A stretch of 42,876 nucleotides of DNA, taken from contig JBJKOV010000089.1 in the NCBI GenBank assembly GCA_046707105.1, positions 1 through 42,876 on the forward strand, given 5' to 3'. The translations under genes and the position numbers were made by a program. This document shows positions 2,752-33,105 of this stretch, one piece after another. A model generated the notes under the pieces. That model made no database searches and was not told the DNA's origin. It was given only the letters and a program-made list of their open reading frames with translations. Source of the DNA: Thermodesulfovibrionales bacterium (GTDB lineage: Bacteria; Nitrospirota; Thermodesulfovibrionia; Thermodesulfovibrionales; UBA6898). How positions within the stretch are numbered: the stretch's first letter is position 1; the number at the start of each line of letters is the position of its first letter.

Positions 2752-2790
2752 GCTGTTTCCATGTCAGCCGCCCGCAGGCTGTTCCTGCCG

Positions 2791-4980: not shown

Positions 4981-5059
4981 CTTTCTGCCTCGTTTTTTTC
5001 AGAACCGGTTTTTATAACTTATGCTCTCCTGCAAAAGTACTTGCGAGTGCCTCATTCAA

Positions 5060-5854
5060 CTAAAAGAAACTCTCAGGGACCACGATCACGTCGTTAGGCA
5101 GTACTGGTTCATCCATCTTCACCTTTTCCATGACATCATCTTTCCCCTTTTCATTCCGTATGATCTTTACACTGCCTGTTGAAGCCTTATCAGTAAATCC
5201 ACCAGCCATGGTGATCGCCTTCAGTACAGTCGTCCCTTCCTCGAATTTATAGGCATCCGGCTTCCTGACCTCGCCGGTCACATAAAAAACTCCGGCTTTG
5301 GGGATATAGATGCTGTCGCCGTCTATAATAGGTATGTTCTGTGAGGTGTCCCCCATTTCTATCAGGCGCTTGAGGTCGATCGAGATGATTTTTTCCTTTT
5401 GGCCCGGAGAATCGGGTTTCCTCTTGACGATAGCCTTGTCACCCGCGTCCTTCGTAAGGTCCCCCGCCTTGGAAAGGACTTCAAGAAAAGTAGTATAGCC
5501 CTTCAGTTCATAAAGACCGGGATTCTTTACCTGCCCCATAATAGTCGCTCTCTGACTTCTGAACTCCTGAATAAATACGGTCACCTGCGGATCGATAATG
5601 TATCCCTGGGAAAGCATATCCGCTATTTTGTGGGACACCTCTGAGACGGTGAGACTGGAGATCTTCACATGGCCGATAAGAGGGAAAATTATCGTTCCGT
5701 CGCCGCTCACGCGCACAGTGGTGGTCAGATCGGGATGATCATATACCGTTATCTGAAGTACGTCACCTTCACCCACTACATAGTCTTGCGCAGCCACGGG
5801 GCGACATATTGCAAGGATTAAAACAATAAATCCGATGATCCCTATTAACTTCAT
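5060..5854 (-). CDS. Polysaccharide export protein (Wza / Poly_export + SLBB type)
   Basis: 264 aa with signal peptide MKLIGIIGFIVLILAICRPVAAQ. A Poly_export-like N-terminus is present (DYVVGEGDVLQITVYDHPDL...VSGDGTIIFPLIG). SLBB-like repeats follow (GLYELKGYTTFLEVLSKAG; GVFYVTGEVRKPDAYKFEEGTTVLKAITMAGG). It lies adjacent to the tyrosine kinase gene. Confidence 0.85.
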   Translation of the reverse strand: MKLIGIIGFIVLILAICRPVAAQDYVVGEGDVLQITVYDHPDLTTTVRVSGDGTIIFPLIGHVKISSLTVSEVSHKIADMLSQGYIIDPQVTVFIQEFRSQRATIMGQVKNPGLYELKGYTTFLEVLSKAGDLTKDAGDKAIVKRKPDSPGQKEKIISIDLKRLIEMGDTSQNIPIIDGDSIYIPKAGVFYVTGEVRKPDAYKFEEGTTVLKAITMAGGFTDKASTGSVKIIRNEKGKDDVMEKVKMDEPVLPNDVIVVPESFF

Positions 5855-5994
5855 ATCTCCGACTTAAAACAGTCTGTTATTTGGAGCCCGCGTATAAAGT
5901 CTTTTCCGTCCGGTTGTCTTACGCGCTTAACCCAATTTGCCCGCGGACCCTATTTAGTATACTTAAAGTTCGTAACTATTATAAAGGACGACAT

Positions 5995-6021
5995 AAAAAA
6001 TAAACGCGGGCAAAAGCCCGG
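5995..6021 (-). terminator. Possible weak intrinsic terminator after the outer-membrane protein gene
   Basis: On the minus strand a 5-bp stem (cgggc/gcccg, + strand 6007-6011 and 6016-6020) has a 4-nt loop. It is followed by GTTTATTTTTT. The stem is short, so support is limited. Confidence 0.3.
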
Positions 6022-6045
6022 GGCCGGTCGGATGTTTCACATTGG

Positions 6046-7812: not shown

Positions 7813-7943
7813 AATTTCCTTGATATTCTTGACAAAAAAGCCTTTATTGTCAAGCAAAATCAGCTTTGTGGACAAGGAATATCCTCTTTTTTTTGTACGC
7901 CGGCAGATACTTTTTCCGGGACCTCTGATATAATTTATTTCAG

Positions 7944-10336: not shown

Positions 10337-10846
10337 TTAGAAGGTCGACTGACTGATGGGAGGATCGGGGTTCGGCTTCGGGATAGGTTCGAAAGGTGCA
10401 GGATTGTCTGCCGGAGGGGTATAGGGAAGTCCCTCGGGCTCAAAATAGCAAAGACTCACACCTGCCTGCATAAGGCTTGCGCTGACTTCACGGGAGTCGG
10501 CGCCTGCGTCTATAGCGCACCTTGAAACAACATCCGATGTAGCGCCGGCTTGCATGGCTCCCGAAATTATCTGCTTCAGATCCCCGCCCCCGTATATCGC
10601 ACATTTCACCATCAGGCAGGGACTGTTGCCGAGTTCTATAGCAGTCCTTACAACATCCAGGCTGCTCATCCCGTCCTGTATCGTGGTCTTTACGGCGCTG
10701 CAGATATTCCTCTGTCCATCATTTTCATAAAGCTTGTCTTTCGCATCCTGGCTTGCAGAGACCGCAACGGAGACGAGCAAAAATGACGACACTGCGACAA
10801 GGAACAAAACAAATCGACTGTTAAGAGGCCTTAACCGGGGTTTCAT
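10337..10846 (-). CDS. Secreted hypothetical protein (helical Ala/Gly-rich repeats, Pro-rich C-terminus)
   Basis: 169 aa with signal peptide RFVLFLVAVSSFLLVSVAVSAS. Loosely repeated motifs occur (VVRTAIELGNS, ISGAMQAGATSDVVSRCAIDAGADSREVSASLMQAG). The tail is Pro-rich (PYTPPADNPAPFEPIPKPNPDPP). No SD was seen. Confidence 0.5.
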   Translation of the reverse strand: MKPRLRPLNSRFVLFLVAVSSFLLVSVAVSASQDAKDKLYENDGQRNICSAVKTTIQDGMSSLDVVRTAIELGNSPCLMVKCAIYGGGDLKQIISGAMQAGATSDVVSRCAIDAGADSREVSASLMQAGVSLCYFEPEGLPYTPPADNPAPFEPIPKPNPDPPISQSTF

Positions 10847-11624: not shown

Positions 11625-12641
11625 TCACTTTTTTTCGCTGTTGCCGCTCCCCTTTTCGTCCTTCTTTTCAAAAGCGTCCTTCGCGCAGCGGAACCCGAAA
11701 TTGAGGTACCGGTCGGCCGGGTCGAACCAGTAGCGGTAAGGTGTTCTGATCACCAGTTCGCCATAACTGTCGTACCAGGAACCGCCCCGCATCACCTTGA
11801 ACCATCCGATTTTGGGGCCTTCGGGGTTTTCCTTAGGCGGTGTATCCGACTTCTCTTCTTTTGCAAGAGATATAGTCGACCTGGGCACGCCCAACAGCCT
11901 GGCCGACACATTAATGGTATCCTCTACAGTCTCATAGCAGAAGTTGCAGTAGTTCTGCCTGTACCAGTCGTTGACCCACTCCCAGACATTCCCGGCCATA
12001 TTTACTGCACCATAACAGGAAGCGCCCTCAGGAAGCGAATCGACCGGAACCATAACGTTGAATCCTTCGTTCTTCCATTTCCGGTTGTACCTGGCTTTGG
12101 TGTCGTCCGGCATAGTATTCCCCCAGGGATATATCCTCCCGTCGTCGCACCTGGCGGCTTTCTCCCATTCTGCCTCAGACGGGAGATGCCTGCCCTTCCA
12201 GCGGCAGTAGGCGTCAGCCCCGTACCAGGACACATTGTTGGCGGGATAGTCTTCAAAACCCTTCCTCGGGACATATTTCTCCGGGTCTTCAGGGGTCTCG
12301 ATCTCCTTGCCGTCTACATTGGATATCCCCATGACCGTAGAATAACGGTCGTCAGAAAAATACTTGTCGTCAGGGTTTCCCTTTTTGTTCAGGAACTCGG
12401 CAAACTGTTTTGCCGAAACCTCGGATTTGTCAATCAGATAGGCGTCCAGATACACATCATGTTCAGGCCTCTCATTGATTTCAGCCGAGTTGAGCCCCAT
12501 TCTGAACCATCCTGCGGGTACGGCGACCATATCCCGGTCCTTTGCGTCTTTCCTCGGGTTTGTTGTGACACACGCTGAAAGCAAAACGGACATCAGGAGG
12601 AACGCGAAAACGGTGCATATAATATTTTTCATCATTTTCAT
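11625..12641 (-). CDS. Formylglycine-generating-enzyme (SUMF1/EgtB/PvdO, FGE-sulfatase) family lipoprotein
   Basis: The ORF track starts at 12779. I prefer ATG at 12641, which gives MKMMKNIICTVFAFLLMSVLLSAC (lipobox LSAC). FGE-family motifs are present: VPAGWFRMG, RPEHDVYLDAYLIDKSEVS, NNVSWYGADAYCRWKGRHLPSEAEWEKAAR, GNVWEWVNDWY, RGGSWY and FGFRCAKD. Confidence 0.8.
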   Translation of the reverse strand: MKMMKNIICTVFAFLLMSVLLSACVTTNPRKDAKDRDMVAVPAGWFRMGLNSAEINERPEHDVYLDAYLIDKSEVSAKQFAEFLNKKGNPDDKYFSDDRYSTVMGISNVDGKEIETPEDPEKYVPRKGFEDYPANNVSWYGADAYCRWKGRHLPSEAEWEKAARCDDGRIYPWGNTMPDDTKARYNRKWKNEGFNVMVPVDSLPEGASCYGAVNMAGNVWEWVNDWYRQNYCNFCYETVEDTINVSARLLGVPRSTISLAKEEKSDTPPKENPEGPKIGWFKVMRGGSWYDSYGELVIRTPYRYWFDPADRYLNFGFRCAKDAFEKKDEKGSGNSEKK

Positions 12642-12804
12642 TTGAGCAATTCTACCCCTTCCGGGGTAGATATTACAAGAACTTTCTGTGCCAATTTCCC
12701 GGCTTGCCCGGAAGGATTCCCGACCCCGAAAGGATTCGGGATTGCGGCAATAACACACCCTTTTCCGGGGCCCGGACAAAACCGTTCATTTGAGGGACAC
12801 TACA

Positions 12805-13278
12805 TCAGGTATTTCTTCGGCAGATAATTTTTCGCCTGAAAAGCCGCAGGCGACCATAGTGACAGTACGATTCGAAGAGACTGACCACTGCCCTGAGGTA
12901 ATTTATTTTCCTCTGCAGCGACGCTTCCATATGTATCTTTTCAGGGCCGAATTCGGGACAAACCCGCTCTATCCTACAGACCTTGCCCAAAATTTCATCG
13001 TGCCGCACCGGTGCATCAAAAGACCTGAGGGCGTCTCCTCTTGTCTGAAACATGTACTCGCCCTTTCTGGCCCGTTTTCTTCTGACAAGCCTGTGGAGCA
13101 CAGGGAAACCCGGTTGACCTTCAACAAATATGAGGTCGCCTCTTCGCAGCTCGGTCTCCGGCACTTTTTTTATGGTGACCACTTCTCCTCCCCTGAGAAA
13201 AGGCACCATGCTCCGGCCCGTCACTTTTACGCGAAGGGATAAGCCGCTGTCCAGAATATCTCTGAAAAAACCCACCAT
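12805..13278 (-). CDS. S24/S26-family serine peptidase, archaeal/ER-type (Ser-His) signal-peptidase-I-like
   Basis: Motifs are VTGRSMVPFLRGGEVVTIKK (SM nucleophile box), GDLIFVEG, VLHRLV (His where LexA/SPase-I-type enzymes have Lys) and FQTRGDAL..D. The start is uncertain. The track ORF extends to 13521 but would overlap the upstream gene by 190 nt. ATG at 13278 (MVGFFRDIL) is the first non-overlapping Met. Confidence 0.6.
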   Translation of the reverse strand: MVGFFRDILDSGLSLRVKVTGRSMVPFLRGGEVVTIKKVPETELRRGDLIFVEGQPGFPVLHRLVRRKRARKGEYMFQTRGDALRSFDAPVRHDEILGKVCRIERVCPEFGPEKIHMEASLQRKINYLRAVVSLFESYCHYGRLRLFRRKIICRRNT

Positions 13279-13330
13279 CTCCGCCTTTGCCGGAGAGACA
13301 GGCGCGGGTACGGGTATATCCGGCTTTCCA

Positions 13331-14212
13331 TTATCTCGACACAAAGTCTTCAAGAATATCCGCCTCGATATCGGAAGTAAAATAAAGTAAATACGAAGGC
13401 ACGCGGGAAACCAGCTCCTCGACAAAAGAAAAAATTCTGCCGATCGCCTCCTTGTCATACCAGGGGATCGACAAGACCGGCATAAACCTTCTGAAGGCAT
13501 CCGCCTCCGTAATCTGTTCAATCCTGTTTTCTTCGCTTTGGACCAGGAAGAAGATTTGGGAAAGCGGAGCGGACTTGTTTACGGCAATGCCGGCGTCTCC
13601 GGGCCATGGTGTCCCGAAGATTACAAAAGAGTCTTCGATCTTTCTCATGATTATCCTGTCGTCACTCAAGCCCATGCATCCGGTCTTCCCAAGGAGCTGT
13701 CTCGATATGGTGGATTTTCCAGCCCCTGACCGGCCCGCGAAGATATACCCTCTTTCTTCAAAGACAACACCGGCCGAATGGACAATCGCACCGTTCCTCA
13801 CAGAAAGAAAATACATGAGCAGGATCTGATCCAGCGGATAATGCAGCGGGTTTCTCACAGTTGCTCCGCTACCCGACTCATTACAGAACATAGCGACATT
13901 TCTGTTCTGAGGACAGAATCTGACCAGCCTTTGGAGGCCTGCCCACGGCGCTTCAAAAAAGAGTACATAATCGCCCCTGTCGCAGAATAACGACCAGTCA
14001 TTCTCAATCTTAAAAAGGCTTTTCATCCCCTGGATTTCGGGAATCCGGCCAAAAAGGAGATCAACGGCGATTTGGTCGATTTCGTCCTGTTCAATTTTGG
14101 CCCCTTTGACAAACCCCGCATATGCCGGATCAGGAAGAAAAAGGTCCTTTTTGGGCTGGGGATTTAAGTCGAACTTCATTCCTCCGATACGGTAGAGATA
14201 TTCTGTAGACAA
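13331..14212 (-). CDS. HPr-kinase-like P-loop protein (HprK-related putative peptide/protein kinase)
   Basis: 293 aa with a TTG start and GGAGG 7 nt upstream. The P-loop is GYIFAGRSGAGKSTISRQL, followed by GLSDDRIIMRK. This resembles the HprK/P GxSGxGKSE ... ADDRV arrangement. Confidence 0.65.
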   Translation of the reverse strand: MSTEYLYRIGGMKFDLNPQPKKDLFLPDPAYAGFVKGAKIEQDEIDQIAVDLLFGRIPEIQGMKSLFKIENDWSLFCDRGDYVLFFEAPWAGLQRLVRFCPQNRNVAMFCNESGSGATVRNPLHYPLDQILLMYFLSVRNGAIVHSAGVVFEERGYIFAGRSGAGKSTISRQLLGKTGCMGLSDDRIIMRKIEDSFVIFGTPWPGDAGIAVNKSAPLSQIFFLVQSEENRIEQITEADAFRRFMPVLSIPWYDKEAIGRIFSFVEELVSRVPSYLLYFTSDIEADILEDFVSR

Positions 14213-14230
14213 CCGTGATCCTCCATACTT

Positions 14231-14395
14231 TTAGGAGCCACTGGAGGCGCAAGGCTGCGAGATCACACATCCAGGAGGAAAAGGCCCACCTAGTGTCTTT
14301 GTCTTGCAGCCGTTGACACTCATCGTCTCCTCTGCCGCGAGTTCTATTACCCTCAGGACGGGCTTTTCGTACACCATTTTTTTTTCTTGTTCCAT
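14231..14395 (-). CDS. Candidate RiPP precursor peptide (54 aa; 48 aa if the second ATG at 14377 is used)
   Basis: MEQEKKMVYEKPVLRVIELAAEETMSVNGCKTKTLGGPFPPGCVISQPCASSGS. The ATG at 14395 is preceded by GAGGTG and lies 17 nt after the radical SAM stop. The N-terminal half is charged and aliphatic (leader-like). The C-terminal half is Gly/Pro/Ser-rich with C-x12-C-x5-C and a Ser-rich tail. It sits between the rSAM and kinase-like genes. Confidence 0.55.
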   Translation of the reverse strand: MEQEKKMVYEKPVLRVIELAAEETMSVNGCKTKTLGGPFPPGCVISQPCASSGS

Positions 14396-14412
14396 CAAGC
14401 ACCTCACAGTAA

Positions 14413-15486
14413 TTATTTGCTGACTGCTGAATACCTCGCTTTTCCTAGGGCACACAGGTAATCGGAAAGAAGATTTTCATCACCTTTTTCCAACAGGAAA
14501 AAACCGGGGCAATAACCGCAAATCATTGAAGTATTGCAATCACGGCAGCGTCGTTCCGGGTTGGCCTTCAGGTCTCTCAACCCCGCCATTCTTTTCCAGC
14601 CCTCGGCAAAACTCCCAGCGAGCAAATCATGTCCAAAATGCTTAACCATCAGACAAGGCATGAGAACTCCTTTTGGGCTTATATGGAAGTTCGTGACCCC
14701 TGCGCCGCAGCTATATAACCTGTCGTTTAACTTCACGCCTCCATATCTGCCCACGACTTTTTTCCATTCGGCAAACCTGCTTTCGTCAGACAGTTCCTTA
14801 TCCAGGGCATCATAAACGGGGACCCTGAGAGAAAGCGGAGACATGTCACCGTCGAAACGGGGAAAGATGGCCGCATCGAACCGGAATTTGACACCATAGG
14901 ACTTTGCAATGCGCTCTATATCGTAAAATTCATGACTATTCACAGACATCAGGATCGTCTTGATTGTAAGGTTTGTCCCCGTTTTCAAAAGCTCCTCTAT
15001 CCCATTCATACAGGCACGAAATGATCCGGGAACTCCGGTCACCCTTTCATACGTCTCCTGGGTGGCACCGTAGAGGCTTATCTCGACGACATGCGGTGGT
15101 AGGTCGGCAAAAAGATCCGTCACCTTTCGGTTGATCAGCGTACCGTTTGTAAATACGGTCACGATCATCCCGTTATTCTTGGCGCGTCCATAGACGTCTC
15201 CGAAGTCCGGCCTCAAAAGAGGCTCCCCCCCGGTTATAAGCAGATAAAGGCATCCGGCATCTCTAATCTCATCCAGCAGCGAAAAGACCTTACTGGTATC
15301 CATTTCACTTCGCCCCGGATTTTTATCGTATCTGGCAGAACCGACATAGCAATGGATGCACCTGAGATTGCAACGCTGGGTAAATTCGAGGGCCCCGGAT
15401 ATGGGGACCCTCAGCCGGTTCACCTTCCGGCAGAATTCAGTAAAATACTCAGTTCCGTTCACAGAGGACTGGCATTCGAGCATCAC
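14413..15486 (-). CDS. Radical SAM / SPASM-domain peptide-modifying enzyme
   Basis: 357 aa. The CxxxCxxC radical SAM cluster motif is CNLRCIHCY, and GGEPLL is the SAM-binding motif. The C-terminal auxiliary-cluster cysteines are SPASM-like (YSCGAGVTNFHISPKGVLMPC ... CRDCNTSMICGYCPG). The start overlaps the PqqD stop by 4 nt (ATGA). Confidence 0.9.
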   Translation of the reverse strand: MMLECQSSVNGTEYFTEFCRKVNRLRVPISGALEFTQRCNLRCIHCYVGSARYDKNPGRSEMDTSKVFSLLDEIRDAGCLYLLITGGEPLLRPDFGDVYGRAKNNGMIVTVFTNGTLINRKVTDLFADLPPHVVEISLYGATQETYERVTGVPGSFRACMNGIEELLKTGTNLTIKTILMSVNSHEFYDIERIAKSYGVKFRFDAAIFPRFDGDMSPLSLRVPVYDALDKELSDESRFAEWKKVVGRYGGVKLNDRLYSCGAGVTNFHISPKGVLMPCLMVKHFGHDLLAGSFAEGWKRMAGLRDLKANPERRCRDCNTSMICGYCPGFFLLEKGDENLLSDYLCALGKARYSAVSK

Positions 15487-15791
15487 TCAACGACCTCTAT
15501 GAGACCGGCTTTCAAGAGTTCTTCCATAAAGTCACGGACATCTCTTTCCGCTTCTTCCCGTCCGACATCGAAACGATCCAGGAGTTCGGCCGCTATCGCA
15601 TCACGATCGCTTTTTTCATCGAGACATCGCCAGATGTACGCCGCGACGGGGTTAAGCGAAAAGATCTGCTGCATGTCGGCAAGCTTTCCTTTTATCGGCA
15701 CAAGGATAGTCTCACCTGCTATTTCTCGTGAGACGATCTCGCCGCGCTTTCTAAATGAGCTTTTCAGTGCCTTTTCTTCCAGACTCATCAT
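15483..15791 (-). CDS. PqqD-family protein (RiPP recognition element / peptide chaperone)
   Basis: 102 aa showing the PqqD pattern (IAGETILVPIKG..IFSLNPVAAYIWRCLDEKSDRDAIAAELLDRFDVGREEAERDVRDFMEELLKAGLI). Its start codon overlaps the giant gene stop (ATGA, 15788-15791). Confidence 0.85.
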   Translation of the reverse strand: MMSLEEKALKSSFRKRGEIVSREIAGETILVPIKGKLADMQQIFSLNPVAAYIWRCLDEKSDRDAIAAELLDRFDVGREEAERDVRDFMEELLKAGLIEVVE

Positions 15792-18700
15792 TTTATACTG
15801 AGCGCCGGGTCTCCGATGATATTAAAGCTGTTAAGGATAAACGATGGCCTGCCCTGAGCCTGGTAGCCCGCCATCGCCTTGATAACGGCGTCCCCAAGGG
15901 TAATCACCCCGGGCTGGAAGGCTGCAGTGTAAAAGCCCTGCCCGAGGATTTTCGCATCGGCGTTCAGTGAGAAGCCGGATGGCGCCCACGAGGAGACTAT
16001 CCCACCCCCGTTCTTCACAATAAGGGCGTCCGTCAGTGATTCAAAACCGGGGAAGGCATATTGGCCCACCATGCAGGTAAGGCCAATGAGCACTGGGTAC
16101 CGGCCGTTGCTCAGCCCGGCAACATCGTCCACGGTCAGGAGTCCATTCTGTGTCAGCTGGTCGATGCCTGCATGTCCCATGTAATTTACAAACTGCATGC
16201 CGCGATTCAGGCCGTCGAAAAGAAGACTTCTTGCCTGATCGAGCTGATAATCCGAAAGGTATATCTCCTCCACCAGATGGGCGGCAAATATTTGAGCTAT
16301 ATCGTTGCTGTCTTTCGGGAAATTACCGGCGCCATCAGGGCTGTCTGCAAGCATCATGACCCCGTCAATTCTGTCCCCTTCGAAGGACTTGATCTTATCG
16401 AGGACAGTTTGCATTTCGTCATTTGATACGACGGGAATCCTGCCGACGGCGATCTCCGGGACATTGTCTCCGTTGAAATCCCCAAGAACGTTGTCCGAAG
16501 GCACCAAACCCCACGGCGTACCGACCATGAGCGGTGGGATAAGGTTGCCTCCGAAGCCCATTACGTTCTTGTAGTCATATGTTCCGGCGCCGACAAGTAC
16601 GGCATACGACGGCTTCTTCTTCCAATTGTTATAAGCATATTGGAGGAAACTTTTTATCGCCCCTGGATCGTACATCCCGTAGTTGAACTCGTCCATGATA
16701 CTTTCGAGCGAAACCACCATAGTCGTCATTGTCTTGCTCTGCCTGTAATCGGCAAGCATCTGAGCGGCGTCCTTGAGCTCTTCCGGTGCAATTACAATGT
16801 AGTCGGCGGCCTTCTTCTTGCGCTTCAAATCCGCCGAAGGCAGAGCGGCTACTGTTTTCCCGGTAATAACGGCAGCGGGAGTGAAAGCGACATATACGGC
16901 ATTGGCGCTGTCCGGATAGAACTTCACCGAGTAATTCCCGGCCTGGCCCCCTGTCGACGCTGGAGCCACAACCTCCGGTTTCAGGGGGTCTGTAATATTA
17001 AAGACCGCTATCGAGGGCGTCGAGAACCCCGCCACCGTTATGGACGAGCTGCCTCCGGCTTTGAAGCGGAGGTAGTCGTTAACCGCCTCATACCGCCTCG
17101 CGTACGTCACGTCGAAGGAATCGATCATGAACAGGCTGTACGGCACGTTCGAGTCGAGAACAGCCTTTACCTCAAGGACATTATCACCCTGCCTGATCAA
17201 ACTTTGGTCTATATTCGCGACAACCGAGTAAGGGCTGATGCCGCTCCATCTTCCCTCGGCAATGTTCACTCCGTTCAGACTTATAACCGCATGGTGCTCG
17301 GGGTTTACGCCTGTCGACGTTATTCCGTACAGCCTCACCGTGATGGCGGCCGTATGGGCGCCGGTGGAGACAGAGTATGCCTTAAAGTTAAAGTCTTTCG
17401 TATCGAGACCCGGCGTGTCTGCCATTACATAATCCCAGAACCAGTAATCGGAATCAGGGTCGGTGGTAATGCCGGGGGCAGGCATGAGATCCTGTTCCAT
17501 GTGAATGGTATCAGCAAAAGAGTCCTGCACTGCACCCGCTAGAACCGCCTTGCCACCCTTAACCGAATTCATCAAAGATCCTTTCGCAGCATTCAGCCAA
17601 TAGATGTTCTCATCAGTGTAGACGTTGTTGATTCCCTTCCCGAAGAAGAAGAGCCCGGCATCGCCATTCGAGGGTGTATAAGAAACCTGGCCGTCGCTGC
17701 AGCTCAATGCGAGGTTGCCGGTCTTGATCATTTGCTCCACCGACTGCAGAGGCATATTGAGTTTGGCCGAGATATCGGAGGCATCGAGGTAATAGATGCC
17801 GTCGCCGGGGACCGGGATCTTAATCGCCGAGCCTTTGCGGGTCTGCTTCAGCGCCCTCGTATTCGCTTGTTCCTGCTTGGCAGCTGCAAGCCTTGAGGCG
17901 GCGGCTGCGGACATCCCGCGGACCTTCCTGCTGAAGGTGTCAGTCACCTGCAGGAAGTCCGAATCCGGCGTGGAGGCCGCATTGCGGACCTTTGTCGCCA
18001 CGTCTCCCTTGATAGTGATCTCCAGGGTGCCGTCCGAGGCAAACCTTTTCACTATATCACCGGCGCTGCTGCCGCCGAGGTCCACGGTGAACGGTCCGTA
18101 GACCAGGCTGCCGCCCTTGTTCTGGACCTCCACAATCTTATAAAGCTGTTTTCCGGAGGGAACGGCCGACTGATCGATCAGCCGGTATGTACCACCCGCC
18201 CCGGAGGTGAGAAAACCTGGAAGGAGGTACTTGTCCACTTTAACATACCTGCGAGTATTTGCGTCATACCGGTAAAGGTAAAAGCCGACTGTATTGCGTT
18301 CGGAGACTGTTTCCCATTCAACCACGACCTTGCCTCCCTGGACGTAGGCATCGAACCCGGCAAGGGATACCTCCGTCGGAGTAACTGTAGTGCAGCTCTG
18401 GTCGTTCGAAGGATTTACGTCCACGGGGATTGAGTTGCTAAGCGTTGCGCAGTTCTGGATTGCCGTGCCGCCGGTGCCGTCATTCGGATAAACATTGATG
18501 GTAAGTGTCGCAGTCGCATCTCTGTCGATCCTCCCGACATTCCATACGCCCGTATTATTATCGTAGGTCCCCTGGCTCGGATTGTTCGAGACATACGTCA
18601 CTTCAGATGGCAGAAGATCGCTGAGGTCCACCTTAAAAGCATGGTTCGTCCCGACATTTGTGAGAGTTATAGTGTAAACCAGCTCTGCGGAGGCTCCGGT

Positions 18701-21700
18701 ACCCGAAGGCGCCGCGTTGTCCACGGTCTTTACGACAGAGATATCAACAGGCACGGCCACCGTAACGTCCTCGGCAGTCGTCGAAAGTTCGTCAAAGGCA
18801 AGGCAGTTTGCGTTGGTGCTCGTGCATGACACGTTGTTTTGGTACGTGCCAGCCGGGACGGATCCGTCCACATTGGCAACAAACTGTATCGACAGCACAC
18901 CTTGAGGTCCGATAGTCCAGGCGCCCCACGTCGGGTGATTGGCACCCGCAGCAGGATCGACCGTCGCAGTTCTTTGACTTCCTGTGCCGGTCAGACTCAT
19001 GGACGTTGTACTCGCATACGTGAATCCGGACGCGAAATTGTCCGTTACCTGAACGCCTGTTGCCGGCGTTGCAGCGGGATTGGTCACAGTGAGAGTGTAC
19101 GTCGCGGTGGTGCCGGTGGTTGAGTTCGTCACATTCGGCGTGCTCGTGCTCTTGTCCGGGACAAGGGCGCAGACAGCCGTCGAAATCGGCGCGCCGCTGT
19201 TCGAGACCACGCCTCCCGGAATTTCTGTCGAGACGATAGTGGCGGTATTGTTATACGACCCGCACGCCGACGGCTGCACCGTCAGATGGAGGGCGCCCTC
19301 TGTGCCAGGAGCGAGAGTGCCGAGGCTCCAGGTAACAGTTCGCGTACCCGCGTTGAAGGTGCCGCCGTTATCGGCGGATATGAAACCAAGACCCGCGGGA
19401 AGAACGTCGGTCACCACAACATTGGTCGCGTTCGATCCGCCCGTATTCTTGTAGTAGAAAGAGTAAATGAACGTCGGGAACGGATTTCCGTAAGCAACAA
19501 GGGATGGGGCAGACTTGTCCAGTATGAAGGCCGGAGTATCCGTCACGTTGATTGATGCAGACGCCTGTTTCGTGGCCGTGTTGATCGAAGAAGCCGTGGC
19601 CGTGTTTGTCACCGTCGTGGTGCCGGCAGGCATGGGTTTGTTGACGGTAACATTAAAGCTCATCGCCCTTGTAGCTTTGCCCGGCAGCGTGCCGACGGCG
19701 TATACGATCCTGTTTAAGACCGCATCGAAATAGGCATTATCGCCGTCATTGGCGTCGGTCTGGCCGGCCGCCTGATAGACAATAGTTCCCTTCTTATATG
19801 ACATATAAGTCGGAACCGGATCGGTGACAACCACTCCCAGGGCGTCTTGAGACCCGACGTTTGCAACCGTCATCGACCAGGTCACATTCGCCCCCGCAGC
19901 CACAGGCCCGGCAGGGAATACGGTCTTGGTTATATTAAGATTCGGCCCGTTCAGGATCGTCACCCTCACCGTGTTGCTGTACTGCTGGGCGCCATACGCT
20001 ACGATGCCGGTGTTGTCTTTATAAGTCGTCCCCAAAGGCACTCCCGTCAACGATACGTTCATCTGGAAGGTGAGGCTCACGGAAGAATAGGCCGGGACTG
20101 ACAAATTCGTCCATGTGATCGTGCCGGAATTATAGATGCCGCCGTTTGTGGCGGATCCGACGACATATGAATAGTAGGCGCCGATCGGAAGGGCATCGGT
20201 AACGTTCACAGTTGTCGCAGACCCGGAGCTGTTTAGGACCTTAAGCGTGTACGTCGCCGTATCCCCGGGATAAAGGATAGTCTTGTCGACAGACTTCATG
20301 ATCGCCACGTTCGTCGCTACAGCCGTAGTCGCCGAACTGGTTATCGGCTGGGTCTGATTGGTCGTGAGCTGCGAGGTATTGACCAGCGTGTATATTCCTG
20401 ACGGGAATGGATTCTGCACCGTCACGGTGACTACGAGGGTTCCCTGCTGGCCGGCGGTTATCGTTCCCATAGTGGGGTTGTCATTGGAACTGACTGGACA
20501 GGTCAGCACCTGTCCCGACTGCGTGCAGGGGCTGGGACTTGTCGGACCTCCGTTGAGCGACGCAGTGGCAAAAGTCACTCCTGCGGGCAGGGTGTCTGTA
20601 ATTTGCGAGCCTGTCACATCCGAGCCGCCGTTGTTGCCGAAATTGATGCTGTAAGTCAGGGTGTCGCCGGGCACTGCGCTTATCTTGTCAACTGTCTTGT
20701 TCATGACCACCGACGTTCCCTGGTAACAGAAATGGCTTGGCGTCGGGACCTGTTTTCCATTGGACGTAGTGAAGATGCCGTCATAATAATAGGTCAGATC
20801 AAGGACCTGATTATTCGTATTGGTGCATGCCTCAAACCTCCAGTAAAGACGATGGCCCGCCTGGGGAGCGCTCGTCGGCGTGACGGTCATCTGGTTAAGC
20901 TGGGGCGTCTGATCGGCTCCCGTATAATTAACAGTCTCCTGTCCAAGAAGCGTCTTTGCGCCGGACGCGGGGTCGTAGTCATAGACAGAGGCGTACATGG
21001 TCGTAGGATTGCCGTTTGTCTTTTCGGTGTACCACTGAGCCGTGAGGGGCGTTGACGAACCGTTGTTTACAAGCGGCGGGTCCTGATAAAAATCGGCTAC
21101 CAACGTCAGGGGATTCGTCGGGGACGAACATCCGTTCGATGTGAGGTAAACATGGTGCAAAGCAGAAGGCCCGCTGCCGGCCGCAGTGGTATTGGCGATC
21201 TCCTGGCTTCCATCAAAGCCCACGTTCAGGAACTTGTTATGGAAATAATACGTCTGGCCCTGGCAGGTCATAGTTGATCCCGTCAGACCCACCGAGTAGC
21301 TGCTTGAAGCCGGCGGCGCGAAATTAGTCGCCTGGATCGACGCCGTATTCGTCGACGGATTGTCCCCGGCGTAAGGTTGAGACTGGGAATCCAGTGCCCT
21401 GAGCACCAGATTGCAGACACCCGATGCATTTGGAGCAAGGGTCCCGATGTTCCATGTCACCGACGTAACAGGATTGCCCGACGTCGTGCCCGCCGGGCAA
21501 TTTGTTCCCGCGGCCGAGGACACATAAGTCCAGCCCACAGGAACCGGATCGGTAATGGTGGTGCCTGCCGCGCTCGCATCGCCGACATTGGAAAAAGCGA
21601 TCGTGTAGGTCACGTTCGCTGTCGTCCCCTGCTGTATCGTGGGGTCTATAAATATCTTGTCGCCATTCTTCTGGATGGTAAGAAGGGGCGCAGCCACGCC

Positions 21701-24133
21701 GGTCACGATGATCGTTACGTTAGCGCTCTTCGGCGCTGTCTCGTTGGAGTAGATCGTTGCGGTGTTCAGTAATTTAGTCGGCGCAAGCTGCGGATACGGG
21801 CTCGTCACCTGGGCCATGAAAGATACGGTGAACGGTCCGGAATCCGATTGCAGATTGCCGACGTTCCAGGTGATCATCTTCGTCGTCGCGTTGTAAGTGC
21901 CGCCGTTTGAGGCGGAAACAAAGGTGAGCCCCGAAGGGAGGACATCTGTTATATACACCCCGGTTACATTTGCCGGAGAGTTGTTCGAGTAGGTGATTGT
22001 ATAGGTAATGTTGCCCCCCGGCGCCTGGGTCGCGACACTCGCGCTCTTTGCAATCGTGAGGTCAGGCGCTCCCACGCCGATCTGCACATAATTGCACGAT
22101 ATGTTCGTCGTCTGCCCCCATGATGCCACATTAACATTGGAACCGCATGTATTTTCATACGTCCCGGCCGTGTTCGGGGCCTGCGCAGTAAAGACGATCG
22201 TCCCTGTCCCTCCGGCGGAAATAGTTTTAGCAGGGGAAAAGGTCCATGTAACGGTATTTGTCGACACCGCAGGCGTCCCCGGAGCCAGGGTGCCCCCATT
22301 GGTGCTGACGTATGTAAAATATTGTGCCGGTGAAGAGCCGGCCACCGTCGGCAAATAATCCGTGACGTTGTTTACCTGCACGGTATTGCTCGTATTATTG
22401 TGCACCGTGACCGTGAACTGGACATTTTGTCCTGTTGCCACTCGACCGGGATTCGCGGTCTTATCGACAACCACCGTCTCCCCGCAGGAATTGTTTGACA
22501 AGCTGGAGCCGTAGACAATTCCCGGCGTGGGGTCAGGGTTTACTTTGTCCGTGGACGACGCCGTAGTGCCGTCCGGCAAAGTGTCTCCCGCCTGGACAGA
22601 CTGCAGAAAGCTCCATGTGTGGTAGCCGATATTGTTGGTTGCCACTACGCCGATCAGATAACTGCCGGCCTGAAGTCCGCTCCCGGCAGTGTTCCATGAA
22701 TACGTCCACTGTCTCGGGTCGGTCGCCGACTGTGTGCCCGCCCCGATGAGGACCCAGGACGAACCGTCATCAGCCAGACCGTTGCCGTTCGCATCGTAGT
22801 AGTAATAGAAGTTCGCCGCAGTAACATTTGTGTTGCACGCGGTATTGGTAATAGCGCCCCGCACCTGCGCTGTAAGGCCGGTCGTGCAGCCTGCGGGACT
22901 GGCCGTGACCGAGTCCACGACAGGCTGTGGAACAATCTCGGGACCATTGGGACCGCAGAGCACAACCAGATCGCCAAAGGGGACACAGGCGTCCGGCGTG
23001 GCAAGGAGGCTTTCGTTGGCGACGACATCCTTCTGGAACGGGTTAGTGAGGCTGTTTGCGGTCGAAAAGAAAAGCCCCGTCGGGTTCGTGCAGTCGAAAG
23101 AATAGGTACCGTTGCTCAACATCCCGAGGGGGATCTCGTAGTCAACAAAGTATTCGTTCTCGTTGTCCTGGCTGCACTGATGAGCTGGAGGCGCAAGCAG
23201 GGGGTCGTAATCGCTGATGTCAACAGAGCGGGTGGTCCCATAGTCCCAGACCGTCTCGGCCGAACCGTTCGGCCAATAAGCGTCGGGAGAATTGGAATTG
23301 TGAAAATTGAGGATCAGGCCGGACGGTCCGGGCGCCGTTCCGTCATTTACGAATGCCGTCGGGTTATGCCACAGTTCGAAGATGTCCCTGTCGTGGGGGT
23401 CCATGTTCTGGCTCAGTGTGTTGCTGTATACCGTGCGCAGGATGTCCACCGGATAAGCCGGCATGCCGGTCGAGCCGTCGAGCTGCATCCCGAATTCCCT
23501 GTATCCGTCGCCGTCGGTATCCATCAGCACCGTCCACTGGGCAGACTTCCACGGGTCCACATCGCTGAAGGCGCTCGGGGCCGGACCCGTAGCGTAAGTA
23601 TTCGGTATCTGCTCGACCCTCCACCTGAAAAAAAACATCTGATAGGCCGGATCGTAATCAATATATATGCTGGGGAGTGATTGGTCGGGGCAGCCCGAAC
23701 TGACGTTGACGTAGTTCTGCGGCCTGGTCCCTCCATTTGAAGGGTCAAGAACGCGGGGATCATTGATCGAGGCATTTTCCCAGGTATAGGCCATCCATGA
23801 ACTATCGCCCGGCCATGGGGCCGGAGAGAAGTTCGGACCATAATTCCCGCCAAGTGCTCCCCCGTTCCAGTACGGCACATAGCCAAGGACATTGGCCTCT
23901 GCCTTAACGGGCGGTATGGCGGCAAGAAGGAGAGAGATAACGAAGATAATGAAGGCATAGGGAAGCAACTTAAAGCCGCAACGTCCAACCGGTAATGACA
24001 TTTTTTGACACTTGTCATGACAAATAAGTTCAGAATGCGCGGCATTTGAGCCAATGCATTCCCTGATAAGAGCCTGTCTTCCGTCGGCCATAATCCTCCC
24101 CCTCACACTCCAAAACATTTTTAGACATCCCAT
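15788..24133 (-). CDS. Giant (up to 2781 aa) secreted DUF11-repeat protein with C-terminal peptidase C25 (gingipain-like) domain
   Basis: A single uninterrupted 8.3-kb ORF. Possible starts are 24133, 24091 (GGGGGAGGA just upstream) and 24001. The signal-like segment is FKLLPYAFIIFVISLLLAAIPPVKAEA. About nine DUF11-type repeats are present. The C-terminal C25 motifs are YIVIAPEEL, NYMGHAG and GLTCMVGQ. Confidence 0.9.
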   Translation of the reverse strand: MGCLKMFWSVRGRIMADGRQALIRECIGSNAAHSELICHDKCQKMSLPVGRCGFKLLPYAFIIFVISLLLAAIPPVKAEANVLGYVPYWNGGALGGNYGPNFSPAPWPGDSSWMAYTWENASINDPRVLDPSNGGTRPQNYVNVSSGCPDQSLPSIYIDYDPAYQMFFFRWRVEQIPNTYATGPAPSAFSDVDPWKSAQWTVLMDTDGDGYREFGMQLDGSTGMPAYPVDILRTVYSNTLSQNMDPHDRDIFELWHNPTAFVNDGTAPGPSGLILNFHNSNSPDAYWPNGSAETVWDYGTTRSVDISDYDPLLAPPAHQCSQDNENEYFVDYEIPLGMLSNGTYSFDCTNPTGLFFSTANSLTNPFQKDVVANESLLATPDACVPFGDLVVLCGPNGPEIVPQPVVDSVTASPAGCTTGLTAQVRGAITNTACNTNVTAANFYYYYDANGNGLADDGSSWVLIGAGTQSATDPRQWTYSWNTAGSGLQAGSYLIGVVATNNIGYHTWSFLQSVQAGDTLPDGTTASSTDKVNPDPTPGIVYGSSLSNNSCGETVVVDKTANPGRVATGQNVQFTVTVHNNTSNTVQVNNVTDYLPTVAGSSPAQYFTYVSTNGGTLAPGTPAVSTNTVTWTFSPAKTISAGGTGTIVFTAQAPNTAGTYENTCGSNVNVASWGQTTNISCNYVQIGVGAPDLTIAKSASVATQAPGGNITYTITYSNNSPANVTGVYITDVLPSGLTFVSASNGGTYNATTKMITWNVGNLQSDSGPFTVSFMAQVTSPYPQLAPTKLLNTATIYSNETAPKSANVTIIVTGVAAPLLTIQKNGDKIFIDPTIQQGTTANVTYTIAFSNVGDASAAGTTITDPVPVGWTYVSSAAGTNCPAGTTSGNPVTSVTWNIGTLAPNASGVCNLVLRALDSQSQPYAGDNPSTNTASIQATNFAPPASSSYSVGLTGSTMTCQGQTYYFHNKFLNVGFDGSQEIANTTAAGSGPSALHHVYLTSNGCSSPTNPLTLVADFYQDPPLVNNGSSTPLTAQWYTEKTNGNPTTMYASVYDYDPASGAKTLLGQETVNYTGADQTPQLNQMTVTPTSAPQAGHRLYWRFEACTNTNNQVLDLTYYYDGIFTTSNGKQVPTPSHFCYQGTSVVMNKTVDKISAVPGDTLTYSINFGNNGGSDVTGSQITDTLPAGVTFATASLNGGPTSPSPCTQSGQVLTCPVSSNDNPTMGTITAGQQGTLVVTVTVQNPFPSGIYTLVNTSQLTTNQTQPITSSATTAVATNVAIMKSVDKTILYPGDTATYTLKVLNSSGSATTVNVTDALPIGAYYSYVVGSATNGGIYNSGTITWTNLSVPAYSSVSLTFQMNVSLTGVPLGTTYKDNTGIVAYGAQQYSNTVRVTILNGPNLNITKTVFPAGPVAAGANVTWSMTVANVGSQDALGVVVTDPVPTYMSYKKGTIVYQAAGQTDANDGDNAYFDAVLNRIVYAVGTLPGKATRAMSFNVTVNKPMPAGTTTVTNTATASSINTATKQASASINVTDTPAFILDKSAPSLVAYGNPFPTFIYSFYYKNTGGSNATNVVVTDVLPAGLGFISADNGGTFNAGTRTVTWSLGTLAPGTEGALHLTVQPSACGSYNNTATIVSTEIPGGVVSNSGAPISTAVCALVPDKSTSTPNVTNSTTGTTATYTLTVTNPAATPATGVQVTDNFASGFTYASTTSMSLTGTGSQRTATVDPAAGANHPTWGAWTIGPQGVLSIQFVANVDGSVPAGTYQNNVSCTSTNANCLAFDELSTTAEDVTVAVPVDISVVKTVDNAAPSGTGASAELVYTITLTNVGTNHAFKVDLSDLLPSEVTYVSNNPSQGTYDNNTGVWNVGRIDRDATATLTINVYPNDGTGGTAIQNCATLSNSIPVDVNPSNDQSCTTVTPTEVSLAGFDAYVQGGKVVVEWETVSERNTVGFYLYRYDANTRRYVKVDKYLLPGFLTSGAGGTYRLIDQSAVPSGKQLYKIVEVQNKGGSLVYGPFTVDLGGSSAGDIVKRFASDGTLEITIKGDVATKVRNAASTPDSDFLQVTDTFSRKVRGMSAAAASRLAAAKQEQANTRALKQTRKGSAIKIPVPGDGIYYLDASDISAKLNMPLQSVEQMIKTGNLALSCSDGQVSYTPSNGDAGLFFFGKGINNVYTDENIYWLNAAKGSLMNSVKGGKAVLAGAVQDSFADTIHMEQDLMPAPGITTDPDSDYWFWDYVMADTPGLDTKDFNFKAYSVSTGAHTAAITVRLYGITSTGVNPEHHAVISLNGVNIAEGRWSGISPYSVVANIDQSLIRQGDNVLEVKAVLDSNVPYSLFMIDSFDVTYARRYEAVNDYLRFKAGGSSSITVAGFSTPSIAVFNITDPLKPEVVAPASTGGQAGNYSVKFYPDSANAVYVAFTPAAVITGKTVAALPSADLKRKKKAADYIVIAPEELKDAAQMLADYRQSKTMTTMVVSLESIMDEFNYGMYDPGAIKSFLQYAYNNWKKKPSYAVLVGAGTYDYKNVMGFGGNLIPPLMVGTPWGLVPSDNVLGDFNGDNVPEIAVGRIPVVSNDEMQTVLDKIKSFEGDRIDGVMMLADSPDGAGNFPKDSNDIAQIFAAHLVEEIYLSDYQLDQARSLLFDGLNRGMQFVNYMGHAGIDQLTQNGLLTVDDVAGLSNGRYPVLIGLTCMVGQYAFPGFESLTDALIVKNGGGIVSSWAPSGFSLNADAKILGQGFYTAAFQPGVITLGDAVIKAMAGYQAQGRPSFILNSFNIIGDPALSIK
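15791..16810 (-). other. Peptidase C25 (gingipain/PorU-like) catalytic domain of the giant protein
   Basis: The domain runs YIVIAPEELKDAAQMLADYRQ...VGRIPV...NYMGHAG...GLTCMVGQ. The His codon is at 16172-16174 and the Cys codon at 16073-16075, 33 residues apart. Confidence 0.75.
18380..22475 (-). other. DUF11 (conserved repeat domain) array, about nine units, with a ~200-aa insert (about 20710-21300)
   Basis: The recurrent pattern is x-L/I-T-I-x-K ... G-x-I/V-T-Y-T-I ... N-x-G ... V-x-V/I-T-D-x-L-P-x-G ... F/Y-V-S ... T-W-x-x-G-x-L. An example is PDLTIAKSASVATQAPGGNITYTITYSNNSPANVTGVYITDVLPSGLTFVSASNGGTYNATTKMITWNVGNL. Confidence 0.75.
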
Positions 24134-24295
24134 TATATTAAATCTGCCCGTCGATTGTAAATCGAAAAATATATAATCTACGTGGACTTAGGCATGGTAC
24201 ATCATCCTGAATGCCTGGTGCTTCATAGGCCCTGATACAACAAGTCCATCTATCCGCTTTTACTCTCCTCGGCCTTAGCCGAACATTGAATATTA

Positions 24296-24310
24296 GCAAT
24301 ATGGCTGCCA
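24296..24310 (-). promoter_or_regulatory. Candidate sigma54 (-24/-12) promoter upstream of the giant gene
   Basis: The minus strand reads cTGGCAGCCATATTGCt. This is GG-N10-GC with the consensus TGGCA and TTGC blocks at canonical spacing. It lies about 160-200 nt upstream of the candidate start codons, in the correct orientation. Confidence 0.4.

Positions 24311-33028: not shown

Positions 33029-33105
<77 letters not shown>

Follow-up and report, generated by a model that had tools for sequence, protein, structure and literature searches.

The region described here is a six-gene unit on the minus strand of a 42,876-nt contig from a Thermodesulfovibrionales bacterium (JBJKOV010000089.1), the whole of which is referred to as the window. 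The unit begins with a giant gene, encoding a fibre-like protein with a peptidase module of family C25, and this gene is followed by a cassette of five small genes (12805-15791). The giant open reading frame (ORF) occupies positions 15788-24133 and encodes 2781 amino acids (aa) when read as the longest ORF. The cassette encodes PqqD (15483-15791; 102 aa), a radical S-adenosylmethionine (rSAM)/SPASM protein (14413-15486; 357 aa), a precursor peptide (14231-14395; 54 aa), a ScmC/HprK-like P-loop kinase (13331-14212; 293 aa from a TTG start) and a signal peptidase I (SpI)-like peptidase (12805-13278; 157 aa from an ATG at 13278). The conserved order of transcription is thus the C25 giant gene, PqqD, rSAM, peptide, kinase and peptidase.

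The six minus-strand ORFs were all present as listed in a preliminary description of this DNA. The sequence also agreed with the overlap of the giant stop codon and the PqqD start as ATGA at 15788-15791, with a 17-nt gap containing GAGGTG ahead of the 54-codon ORF and with an 18-nt gap containing GGAGG ahead of the TTG-start P-loop gene. A second ATGA had been claimed at 15483-15486 for the PqqD stop and the rSAM start, but bases 15486-15483 are GTGA. The PqqD stop codon, TGA at 15485-15483, is overlapped either by a GTG at 15486 or by an ATG at 15483-15481 (TGATG, a one-base overlap), and the rSAM gene probably starts at ATG 15483 rather than at GTG 15486 because its homologues begin MEC. The Ser/His peptidase-like ORF was detected as the last gene of the unit, although the start of its long ORF, TTG 13521, is not a likely one; the most likely start is ATG 13278, located 52 nt past the kinase stop codon. 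For the giant gene, ATG 24091, which is preceded by GGAGG, is probably the start rather than 24133.

Profile searches with the Pfam and NCBIfam models agreed with all of the domain calls made previously for these proteins. The giant protein consists of a long N-terminal region with a signal-peptide-like N terminus and ~560 aa without a known domain, a repeat stalk, a beta domain and a C25 module. The stalk (18374-22456, minus strand; residues ~560-1920) was delimited by Pfam and NCBIfam matches, namely, nine copies of DUF11 (E value, 1e-114), DUF7507/CLIPPER_2 and the isopeptide-forming domain TIGR04226. DUF11 has been renamed CLIPPER and is the isopeptide-bonded stalk domain of fibrillar adhesins (bioRxiv 10.1101/2025.04.25.650565). 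Judged by its sequence, a long and apparently secreted protein with tandem DUF11/CLIPPER repeats, the giant protein is a CLIPPER fibrillar adhesin. Between the stalk and the C-terminal module lies an unnamed beta domain (18032-18409, minus strand; residues ~1925-2045) with the motif VVVEWETVSE..GFYLYR, which matched no Pfam or NCBIfam model and is conserved in C25 homologues with the alignment consensus VVVxWxTxSExxTxGFxLxR. The giant gene has a G+C content of 0.53-0.58 (15001-24000), compared to 0.48-0.51 in the cassette (12001-15000), and is richer than its flanks as well.

The last 780 aa of the giant protein (15791-18130, minus strand) form a PorU-like module, in which accessory beta domains precede a C25 catalytic domain. 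Peptidase_C25 matched with an E value of 2e-71, and NF033707, the model of PorU, the sortase of the type IX secretion system (T9SS), matched with an E value of 2.8e-63 (214 bits versus a cutoff of 420; profile positions 104-732 of 1095). The only sequence match of the module in the PDB was PorU (6za2; E value, 3.8e-10), in an alignment that paired both catalytic motifs. For the last 780 residues, an AlphaFold2 model (predicted local distance difference test [pLDDT] score, 86.5) was compared with known structures by Foldseek, and PorU 6za2 was matched over ~800 columns with an E value of 2e-31 and a query-based TM score of 0.53. The gingipains RgpB and Kgp were matched over the catalytic domain only (~370-400 columns; E values, 4e-18 to 1e-14). 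The catalytic residues His2654 (GHAG; codon at 16172-16174, minus strand) and Cys2687 (LTCMVG; codon at 16073-16075, minus strand) were each present in at least 90% of 53 homologues and aligned with the GHGG motif and the active-site Cys region of PorU, respectively. The Cys, which sits 33 residues past the His, was invariant in the alignment of the C25 homologues, and D2597, also conserved among them, aligned to an Asp of PorU. The giant protein ends right after GDPAL, and the C terminus is conserved in homologues as GDPAL[RK]x[KR]. Since these proteins end a few residues past GDPAL, the module lacks the C-terminal domains of PorU. The propeptide model Propeptide_C25 (PF08126) gave no match in the window protein or its close relatives and was detected only in more distant relatives. 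The label of 'gingipain/PorU' that had been given to the module holds for the C25 family, and within that family the module, by sequence and fold, is PorU-like (PorU being a sortase-like transpeptidase) rather than gingipain-like.

Matches of the cassette proteins were to broad families, mostly with scores below the cutoffs of the specific models. PqqD matched PF05402 (E value, 4e-21), and the lasso-type, ScmD and GeoRSP models of PqqD all remained below their cutoffs; from its sequence, the protein is classed as a discrete PqqD-family recognition element (RRE) for peptides that are made by ribosomes and modified after translation (RiPPs). The rSAM protein matched Radical_SAM PF04055 (E value, 8e-23). 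Its CX3CX2C motif (C39, C43 and C46) was conserved in 65/65 homologues, and the seven SPASM Cys residues (C260, C278, C314, C317, C323, C326 and C345) were conserved in 63 to 64 of the 65. No NCBIfam family cutoff was reached by this protein, for which the best partial matches were AhbD, MftC, NirJ2, ScmE/F and PapB. The MftC model gave 110 bits versus a cutoff of 265, and AlbA, SkfB, PapB, StsB, PqqE, ScmE/F and GeoRSP were further below theirs. Only distant matches were obtained in the PDB, the nearest being PqqE, SkfB and SuiB.

The kinase matched two profiles below cutoff, TIGR04355 (HprK related; E value, 1e-8) and TIGR04249 (ScmC; E value, 2e-5), and it carries, as do its relatives, a precomputed Pfam assignment to PF27840 'ScmC'. 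As a comparison of its sequence with the PDB gave nothing significant, the class of the protein was settled by fold comparison only: with an AlphaFold2 model (pLDDT, 87), the top Foldseek matches were phosphoenolpyruvate carboxykinase and HPr kinase/phosphorylase (E values, 2e-7 to 1e-4). Four residues, H145, K166, D184 and D185, are invariant among the homologues and match the His-Lys-Asp-Asp motif that is essential in lasso-peptide kinases (PMC9266682). The peptidase came closest to the archaeal-type signal peptidase I model TIGR02228 (E value, 5.5e-13; 49.1 bits versus a cutoff of 51.85), followed by SipW (E value, 1e-5) and Peptidase_S24 (E value, 1e-3). A putative triad of Ser23, His62 and Asp82, with a Ser-to-His spacing of 39, was conserved in 59 to 60 of 60 homologues. 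No 19-residue segment of the protein had a hydropathy above 1.6, and the absence of such a hydrophobic segment indicated a soluble protein without a membrane anchor. The sequence thus points to a soluble archaeal-type SpI-like (S26/S24) protein and a predicted leader peptidase.

The fourth gene of the unit encodes a peptide of 54 aa, MEQEKKMVYEKPVLRVIELAAEETMSVNG-CKTKTLGGPFPPGCVISQPCASSGS, in which the Cys-Lys-Thr codons lie at 14320-14328. No Pfam or NCBIfam model matched this peptide. A phmmer search of 1.84 billion representative proteins returned ~22 short unannotated relatives; a few long repetitive proteins in the same search were regarded as spurious. A homologous small ORF was detected between the rSAM and kinase genes in 75 of 81 loci (80 fetched loci, introduced below, and the window) by means of a [YFW]xxP leader-motif criterion, and nearly all of the 75 had Y-x-K/R-P. 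The leader consists of a Lys-rich stretch followed by YEKPxLRxIELAAEEVLAxG, and the motif [Y/W]xxPx[L/V/I] is bound by discrete lasso-type RREs (PMC13381572). Comparison of the 74 distinct cores gave the pattern C-K-x11-15-C-x4-C-x5-6, ending in Gly-Ser. Exactly three Cys residues were present in 73/74 cores, and a Lys followed Cys1 in every one of the 74. Four residues separated Cys2 and Cys3 in 59/73 cores and 5-6 residues followed Cys3 in 68/73, while the 11-15 residues between Cys1 and Cys2 varied freely. The final residue was Ser in 71/74 and Thr in 3/74, preceded by Gly in 68/74. At the border of leader and core (A-x-G|C), Gly occupied position -1 in 63/74 and Ala, Gly or Ser occupied position -3 in 70/74. 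With its gene in fourth position within a long operon, the peptide would be produced in roughly stoichiometric rather than bulk amounts. The proposal that the five small genes form a RiPP-type maturation cassette acting on a small Cys-containing peptide was thus supported by the domains, by the conservation of catalytic residues and by the existence of a precursor family.

The recurrence of the cassette was examined with the kinase. A protein collection contained 559 relatives of the kinase, and a genome scan identified 282 encoded relatives, of which the best 80 loci were taken with 10-kb flanks. These best 80 of 282 loci span at least seven phyla, with hosts from Nitrospirota (n = 41), Desulfobacterota (n = 22), Planctomycetota (n = 6), Lentisphaerota (n = 4) and Verrucomicrobiota (n = 2) and one locus each from Chloroflexota, Aminicenantes, Acidobacteriota, Tritonobacter and an unclassified host. 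Searches by tblastn with the window proteins detected the same gene order at the 80 loci, with PqqD present in 67/80 and a single rSAM gene per cassette. In the closest locus (L001), from a metagenome-assembled genome of Thermodesulfovibrionales, the kinase is 70% identical to that of the window and the giant protein is equal in length. A different layout was seen in a locus from Desulfobacterales (L054), with two tandem cassettes in which a second rSAM and ScmC set, and then an ATP-binding cassette (ABC) exporter, come after the C25-linked first.

Linkage to C25 was counted in those loci (n = 59) that extended 1.5 kb or more upstream of the cassette's first gene. A C25 gene was present in 56/59 and was co-oriented, ending <400 nt from PqqD, in 48/59. 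The gap between the C25 stop and the PqqD start was ≤20 nt in 28/47 loci and ≤60 nt in 41/47. These counts indicated that the linkage is conserved and that the attachment of the cassette to the giant DUF11/C25 gene is a selected arrangement and not an accidental one. In the loci examined, the neighbourhood survey that had been suggested for this locus gave a positive answer, with rSAM/PqqD/kinase cassettes recurring beside C25 genes. All-against-all clustering of the ORFs from 81 loci detected no further gene family conserved beyond the six. Most C25 proteins at the cassette loci are longer than 1300 aa, and many are longer than 2500 aa; their conserved part is the last ~850 residues, and the N-terminal part varies (CLIPPER, SdrD_B, FG-GAP and LTD).

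A reciprocal analysis was performed with seven relatives of the last 780 residues of the window protein (33-41% identity). In four of these (L083-L086), the C25 gene is directly followed by PqqD, rSAM, a 58- to 60-aa ORF, ScmC and an S24-like gene. A fifth (L081) is a second paralogue located ~3 kb upstream of a cassette-linked C25 gene on the same contig, and two (L082 and L087) have no cassette at all. This outcome indicated that the cassette almost always occurs with C25 and that the C25 clade sometimes occurs alone. Pairwise divergences of C25 and the cassette were correlated (Pearson r of 0.31-0.42; Mantel P ≤ 0.001), compared to an r of 0.73 between the kinase and rSAM proteins.

The locus of a distant C25 relative (L088) revealed a sister family without rSAM. 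This locus encodes ScmC, PqqD, an SpI-like peptidase and two C25 proteins, at least one of them bearing Propeptide_C25, and a precursor of 48 aa (L088:7636-7782) that begins MEQEPERKEYVKPEITHELELETRAGSP. A metagenome scan with the kinase clade of L088 yielded 80 further loci (L089-L168), in apparently Chloroflexota-type organisms. Among the sister loci of at least 6 kb (n = 24), a C25 gene was present in 15 and an rSAM gene in only one. The sister precursors share RKPYxKPEIxHELELETRAGSP, a leader like that of the linear polyphosphorylated peptides (LPPs), and contain no Cys. In sister loci, the unnamed beta domain is found as separate small, membrane-anchored proteins (L088:2181-2621 and L088:12485-13291) whose C-terminal hydrophobic helix and basic tail resemble the layout of a sorting signal. 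Since the rSAM-less family also carries C25 genes, the tie between the cassette and PorU-like C25 proteins is independent of rSAM. Both C25-linked families have a basic residue at the border of leader and core (Lys in 74/74 and Arg in 16/19), and no such residue is present at the border in the LPP consensus, which derives from clusters without C25 (PMC13381572). From these alignments, the basic residue at the border is a candidate recognition site for C25.

We consider it rather probable, on the sequence evidence, that an RRE-dependent RiPP pathway matures the 54-aa peptide and that an exported PorU-like domain then acts on it; peptide and protease probably work together, in a manner so far undescribed. 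The C25 protein was taken to be part of the pathway because its gene accompanies this type of cassette almost everywhere, with or without rSAM. The chemical steps that we infer would begin with binding of the YEKPxL leader by PqqD, as suggested by the motif and by what is known of the family. The rSAM/SPASM enzyme would then crosslink the three invariant Cys residues of the core, most likely through thioethers of the sacti- or ranthipeptide type, and the ScmC kinase would phosphorylate a hydroxyl group; if it resembles PadeK, the most plausible site is the invariant C-terminal Ser/Thr. Within the cytoplasm, the Ser/His/Asp peptidase would take off the leader, as LppS does in the LPP pathway. 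The site of this cut is uncertain, as A-x-G|C fits the small residues expected at -3 and -1 and the register of LppA would place the cut ~4-6 residues earlier. The giant protein would be exported through Sec as a fibre of isopeptide-type CLIPPER repeats, ending in a PorU-type C25 module that is catalytically intact as judged by its residues. After export, the PorU-like domain may cleave the modified peptide or transpeptidate it at the invariant Lys behind Cys1.

Several observations weigh against this proposal. For three cassettes, C25 is missing from the surrounding 10 kb, and the C25 relatives L082 and L087 have no cassette. The correlation of divergences may only mirror a shared species history. 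The loci share no conserved exporter (one of the ABC type was present in only 6/81), which leaves no evident route by which a cytoplasmic peptide would meet a secreted protease. No Arg/Lys specificity is known for PorU, which weakens the argument drawn from the basic residue. The phospho-Ser of LPPs is at core position 3 and not at the C terminus, so that the site used by the kinase is uncertain (PMC13381572). Finally, the three Cys residues could instead form disulfides or bind metal.

We regard as unlikely a different explanation, by which the cassette makes a secreted peptide that acts by itself (as an antimicrobial, signal or biofilm factor) and the C25 fibre is merely co-regulated, or a passenger of a mobile block, without contact between the two. 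Related RiPPs of the LPP and paeninodin types have no known partner protein and are encoded in polysaccharide loci as suspected biofilm factors, and genes for exopolysaccharide export are located behind the cassette both in the window and in 7/53 loci. The free variation of the N-terminal part of the C25 proteins and the occurrence of C25 relatives without cassettes are in keeping with this explanation. Co-regulation alone, however, hardly accounts for an adjacency of ≤20 nt found across at least seven phyla and for the rSAM-less family, and no other neighbour gene is conserved. The fourth position in an operon would also be atypical for a product that is secreted in bulk.

A more specific form of joint action of peptide and protease is improbable but can be formulated: the crosslinked phosphopeptide would be a dedicated co-substrate of the PorU-type transpeptidase in a T9SS-independent system of surface attachment. 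C25 would form an acyl-enzyme at the invariant basic residue, or a free amine of the peptide would serve as the nucleophile, and the peptide would be ligated to the fibre, to other surface proteins or, via phospho-Ser, to exopolysaccharide. If this were true, the RiPP would be a covalent linker or anchor and not a free natural product.

Slightly more doubtful still is a role of the modified peptide as a trans-acting inhibitor or chaperone of the PorU-like protease, which would replace the missing propeptide and keep the enzyme latent until deployment. In gingipains, inhibition by the prodomain relies on a basic residue that enters the S1 pocket. This precedent, together with the invariant Lys of the peptide and the lack of Propeptide_C25 in the window protein and its close relatives, is compatible with such a role, and the position of the precursor gene fits stoichiometric production. 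Nevertheless, L088 has both a C25 protein bearing Propeptide_C25 and a cassette with a precursor, and the peptide is made in the cytoplasm, while the protease folds after Sec export.

The preliminary description had also raised the possibility that the cassette modifies the giant protein itself; in that case, the target of the rSAM enzyme, the kinase or the peptidase would be the fibre or its C25 domain. rSAM/SPASM enzymes can act on proteins, as do the anaerobic sulfatase-maturating enzymes, and both the translational coupling of the giant gene to PqqD and the gene for an FGE-sulfatase-domain lipoprotein behind the cassette could be read in this way. We regard this explanation as very unlikely, given a dedicated short precursor with an RRE-binding leader in 75/81 loci and a leader-like motif in 0/54 C25 proteins. 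Moreover, the giant protein is Sec exported in an unfolded state, the cassette enzymes have no signal peptides or membrane anchors, and the sister family lacks rSAM. Of the relations suggested in that description, those left as candidates are a peptide that is processed by the giant protein, docks on it or signals to it. Least probable of all is a role of the peptide as raw material for a small redox cofactor: the pairing of PqqD with rSAM/SPASM follows the logic of pyrroloquinoline quinone (PQQ) and mycofactocin, MftC is among the best full-length matches (110 bits) and the terminal core residues are invariant, but all scores fall far short of the family cutoffs, neither a dehydrogenase nor any other gene for a cofactor-using protein is conserved in the vicinity, and the retention of Cys residues and spacings with 11-15 variable residues in between is a pattern typical of crosslinked peptides, unlike that of a cofactor core of two residues.

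The promoter signals upstream of the giant gene were also examined. A sigma54-like motif, TGGCAGCCATATTGCT, is present with one mismatch at 24295-24310 on the minus strand and is the sole such site in the window. It had been described as the only promoter-like signal; the motif exists, but a sigma70-like match, TTTACA-18-TATAAT at 24161-24132 (minus strand), lies upstream of the probable giant start with 11/12 positions agreeing, as a match to the consensus only. At least one sigma54-like match with one mismatch was found in 62/100 shuffles of the window, and a sigma54 promoter therefore lacks statistical support. Upstream of the C25 gene, such motifs were detected in 3/22 other loci, versus ~0.8 expected. 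With a motif expected by chance in a window of this size, sigma54 control was set aside and is retained as a weak possibility only.

Directly behind the cassette lies a gene for an FGE-sulfatase-domain lipoprotein with an LLSAC lipobox (11625-12641, minus strand). This protein gave a weak partial match to the T9SS ring lipoprotein GldK/PorK (78 bits versus a cutoff of 350) and has relatives near the cassette in L001, L023, L032, L039 and L086; besides this match, no T9SS gene was recognizable in the window. Between the cassette and the EpsL gene there is a gene for a small secreted Cys-rich protein without a known domain (10337-10846, minus strand). Its place is kept by homologues in L005, L016 and L035, further homologues are encoded in L023 and L046, and in five Desulfobacterota loci (L012, L015, L052, L058 and L074) a different small Ala/Gly-rich secreted protein takes its place. 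An exopolysaccharide export block of the Eps/PEP-CTERM-associated type follows (367-7875, minus strand, and to 8687 in its full extent), in which Pfam and NCBIfam matches identified an EpsL-like porin with a SPOR domain, a Wza-like exporter, a Wzc-type tyrosine kinase and a Wzy/O-antigen-ligase-tetratricopeptide repeat protein, along with a divergent PpiC-type isomerase; the window showed no exosortase gene. Among the loci in which at least 6 kb could be inspected downstream of the cassette (n = 53), the same four export genes were present in six, and a seventh had Wzc and Wzy only. The link to exopolysaccharide is therefore real in the window and was rejected as a general feature of the cassette.

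On the upstream side, an MsbA-type ABC exporter (ABC_membrane and ABC_tran; 26402-28309, minus strand) lies 2.3 kb from the giant gene and may be the counterpart of the LPP pump LppD; in one of the few loci with relatives (L043), the exporter gene is directly behind the peptidase gene. An unknown 202-aa ORF and a chromate transporter are also encoded upstream of the giant gene. In three loci (L081, L083 and L084), genes for pseudopilins (N_methyl and PilW_C), a secretin and PilO are located just upstream of the C25/CLIPPER genes, a hint that the fibres may be exported by a route resembling type II secretion or a type IV pilus. Neighbours encoding an M48 peptidase, a histidine kinase, a sigma factor and PAP2-like and TraB-like proteins were dismissed as members of the unit and attributed to lineage-level synteny in Nitrospirota. 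The M48 gene, encoding a Ste24-like membrane peptidase with HEAGH, lies on the opposite strand shortly past the gene for the SpI-like peptidase in some twelve loci of Nitrospirota (L008, L010, L013, L020, L022, L028, L036, L040, L041, L044, L047 and L084), probably as lineage synteny. Elsewhere in the window, a 1396-aa ORF (36864-41054, minus strand) gave partial multicopper-oxidase-like matches (PhsA and CueO, far below cutoff) and has no evident connection to the cassette, and a tRNA-Met gene (CAT; 33029-33105, minus strand) was the only RNA family match.

For the RiPP field, these results define a large unannotated family of precursors together with its maturation pathway. As predicted, the pathway joins three logics that have so far been studied apart, rSAM/SPASM crosslinking, HprK-like phosphorylation and SpI-like leader removal. 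It also extends LPP-type machinery, reported as confined to Bacillota (PMC13381572), to diderm anaerobes. With regard to the cell envelope, PorU-like C25 modules were found on isopeptide-stabilized fibres, tied to a putatively modified peptide, in hosts that are not known for type IX secretion, which suggests an unrecognized use of a sortase-like PorU-type protease. The cassette is only 3 kb long and is carried by cultured sulfate reducers, namely, Desulfosudis oleivorans (L052), Desulfonema limicola (L080) and Desulfocicer vacuolatum (L058).

Among known systems, the closest in enzymes is that of the LPPs of Bacillota, which are often encoded inside capsule loci (Popov et al., Nat Commun 2026, PMC13381572). 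In that system, LppK adds up to four phosphates to core Ser3, the leader with YxxPxVLxHQxIxFETxxS is removed by LppS (S29/H68/D93), and this peptidase requires the RRE LppB (PMC13381572). The authors of that study noted that no RiPP pathway with an SpI-like peptidase had been seen previously and that LPPs occur only in Bacillota (PMC13381572). The discrete PqqD-type RRE, the HprK-like kinase and the soluble archaeal-type SpI-like Ser/His/Asp peptidase of the window match the LPP trio in kind and in catalytic residues, as compared by published description, and the Ser-to-His spacing of 39 in the peptidase equals that of LppS. The leader motif YxxP (YEKP in the window peptide) and a placement in polysaccharide loci, frequent for LPPs, are shared as well. 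In contrast, the reported LPP core genes include neither a radical SAM nor a C25 gene, and LPP cores are long, variable and not defined by Cys, with their phospho-Ser at the third position. The LPP core set also includes the nucleoside triphosphate transferase LppN, a counterpart of which was neither conserved across the 81 loci nor present among the scanned ORFs of the window.

The SynChlorMet (SCM) system (TIGR04248-04251) likewise combines a PqqD homologue, an ScmC-type HprK-like protein and rSAM/SPASM in one cassette. Scores for the window proteins were, however, far below the cutoffs of its models (24 versus 125 for ScmC, 42 versus 100 for ScmD, 87 versus 400 for ScmE and 84 versus 400 for ScmF), with only the broader Pfam family PF27840 ScmC matching, and SCM has two rSAM/SPASM genes compared to one in the window cassette. 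To our knowledge, a precursor has not been identified for SCM, and neither an SpI-like peptidase nor a C25 partner belongs to it. Maturases of sactipeptides and ranthipeptides (AlbA, SkfB, PapB and the CteB/SuiB class) share the rSAM core, the seven-Cys SPASM domain, RRE dependence and an adjacent Cys-containing precursor with the window system, which differs from them in having a separate rather than a fused RRE and in the addition of a kinase, an SpI-like peptidase and a C25 fibre. In paeninodin-type lasso peptide clusters, the HprK-like kinases (PadeK, ThcoK and PsmK) have the same H-K-D-D residues, and PadeK phosphorylates the conserved C-terminal Ser of a leader-bearing precursor (PMC9266682). 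The peptides of the window family also end in Ser or Thr, the putative phosphosite, but the cassette has no lasso cyclase, B2 protease or nucleotidyltransferase. PorU of the Porphyromonas gingivalis T9SS (6za2) was the best match of the C25 module in sequence and fold, with accessory domains and a His/Cys dyad in common; unlike PorU, the module is fused to the C terminus of a CLIPPER fibre, lacks the PorU C-terminal domains and a T9SS sorting domain, and occurs mostly in Nitrospirota and Desulfobacterota.

The searchable literature yielded no report combining C25 or gingipain proteins with radical SAM, PqqD or HPr kinase, nor are any of these partners mentioned in the RRE-Finder paper. In the preliminary description, the combination had not been matched to any named system. 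This view needs to be qualified, as the trio of RRE, HprK-like kinase and SpI-like peptidase is already known from LPPs and the kinase belongs to PF27840 ScmC, but it stands for the addition of rSAM/SPASM and for the C25 partner, which are undescribed in that literature. Within the literature that could be searched and the curated model libraries, no name was found for the system as a whole. Overall, these comparisons indicated that the region is an LPP/SCM-like RRE-kinase-peptidase cassette with an added rSAM/SPASM enzyme, bound to a PorU-type C25 fibre protein.

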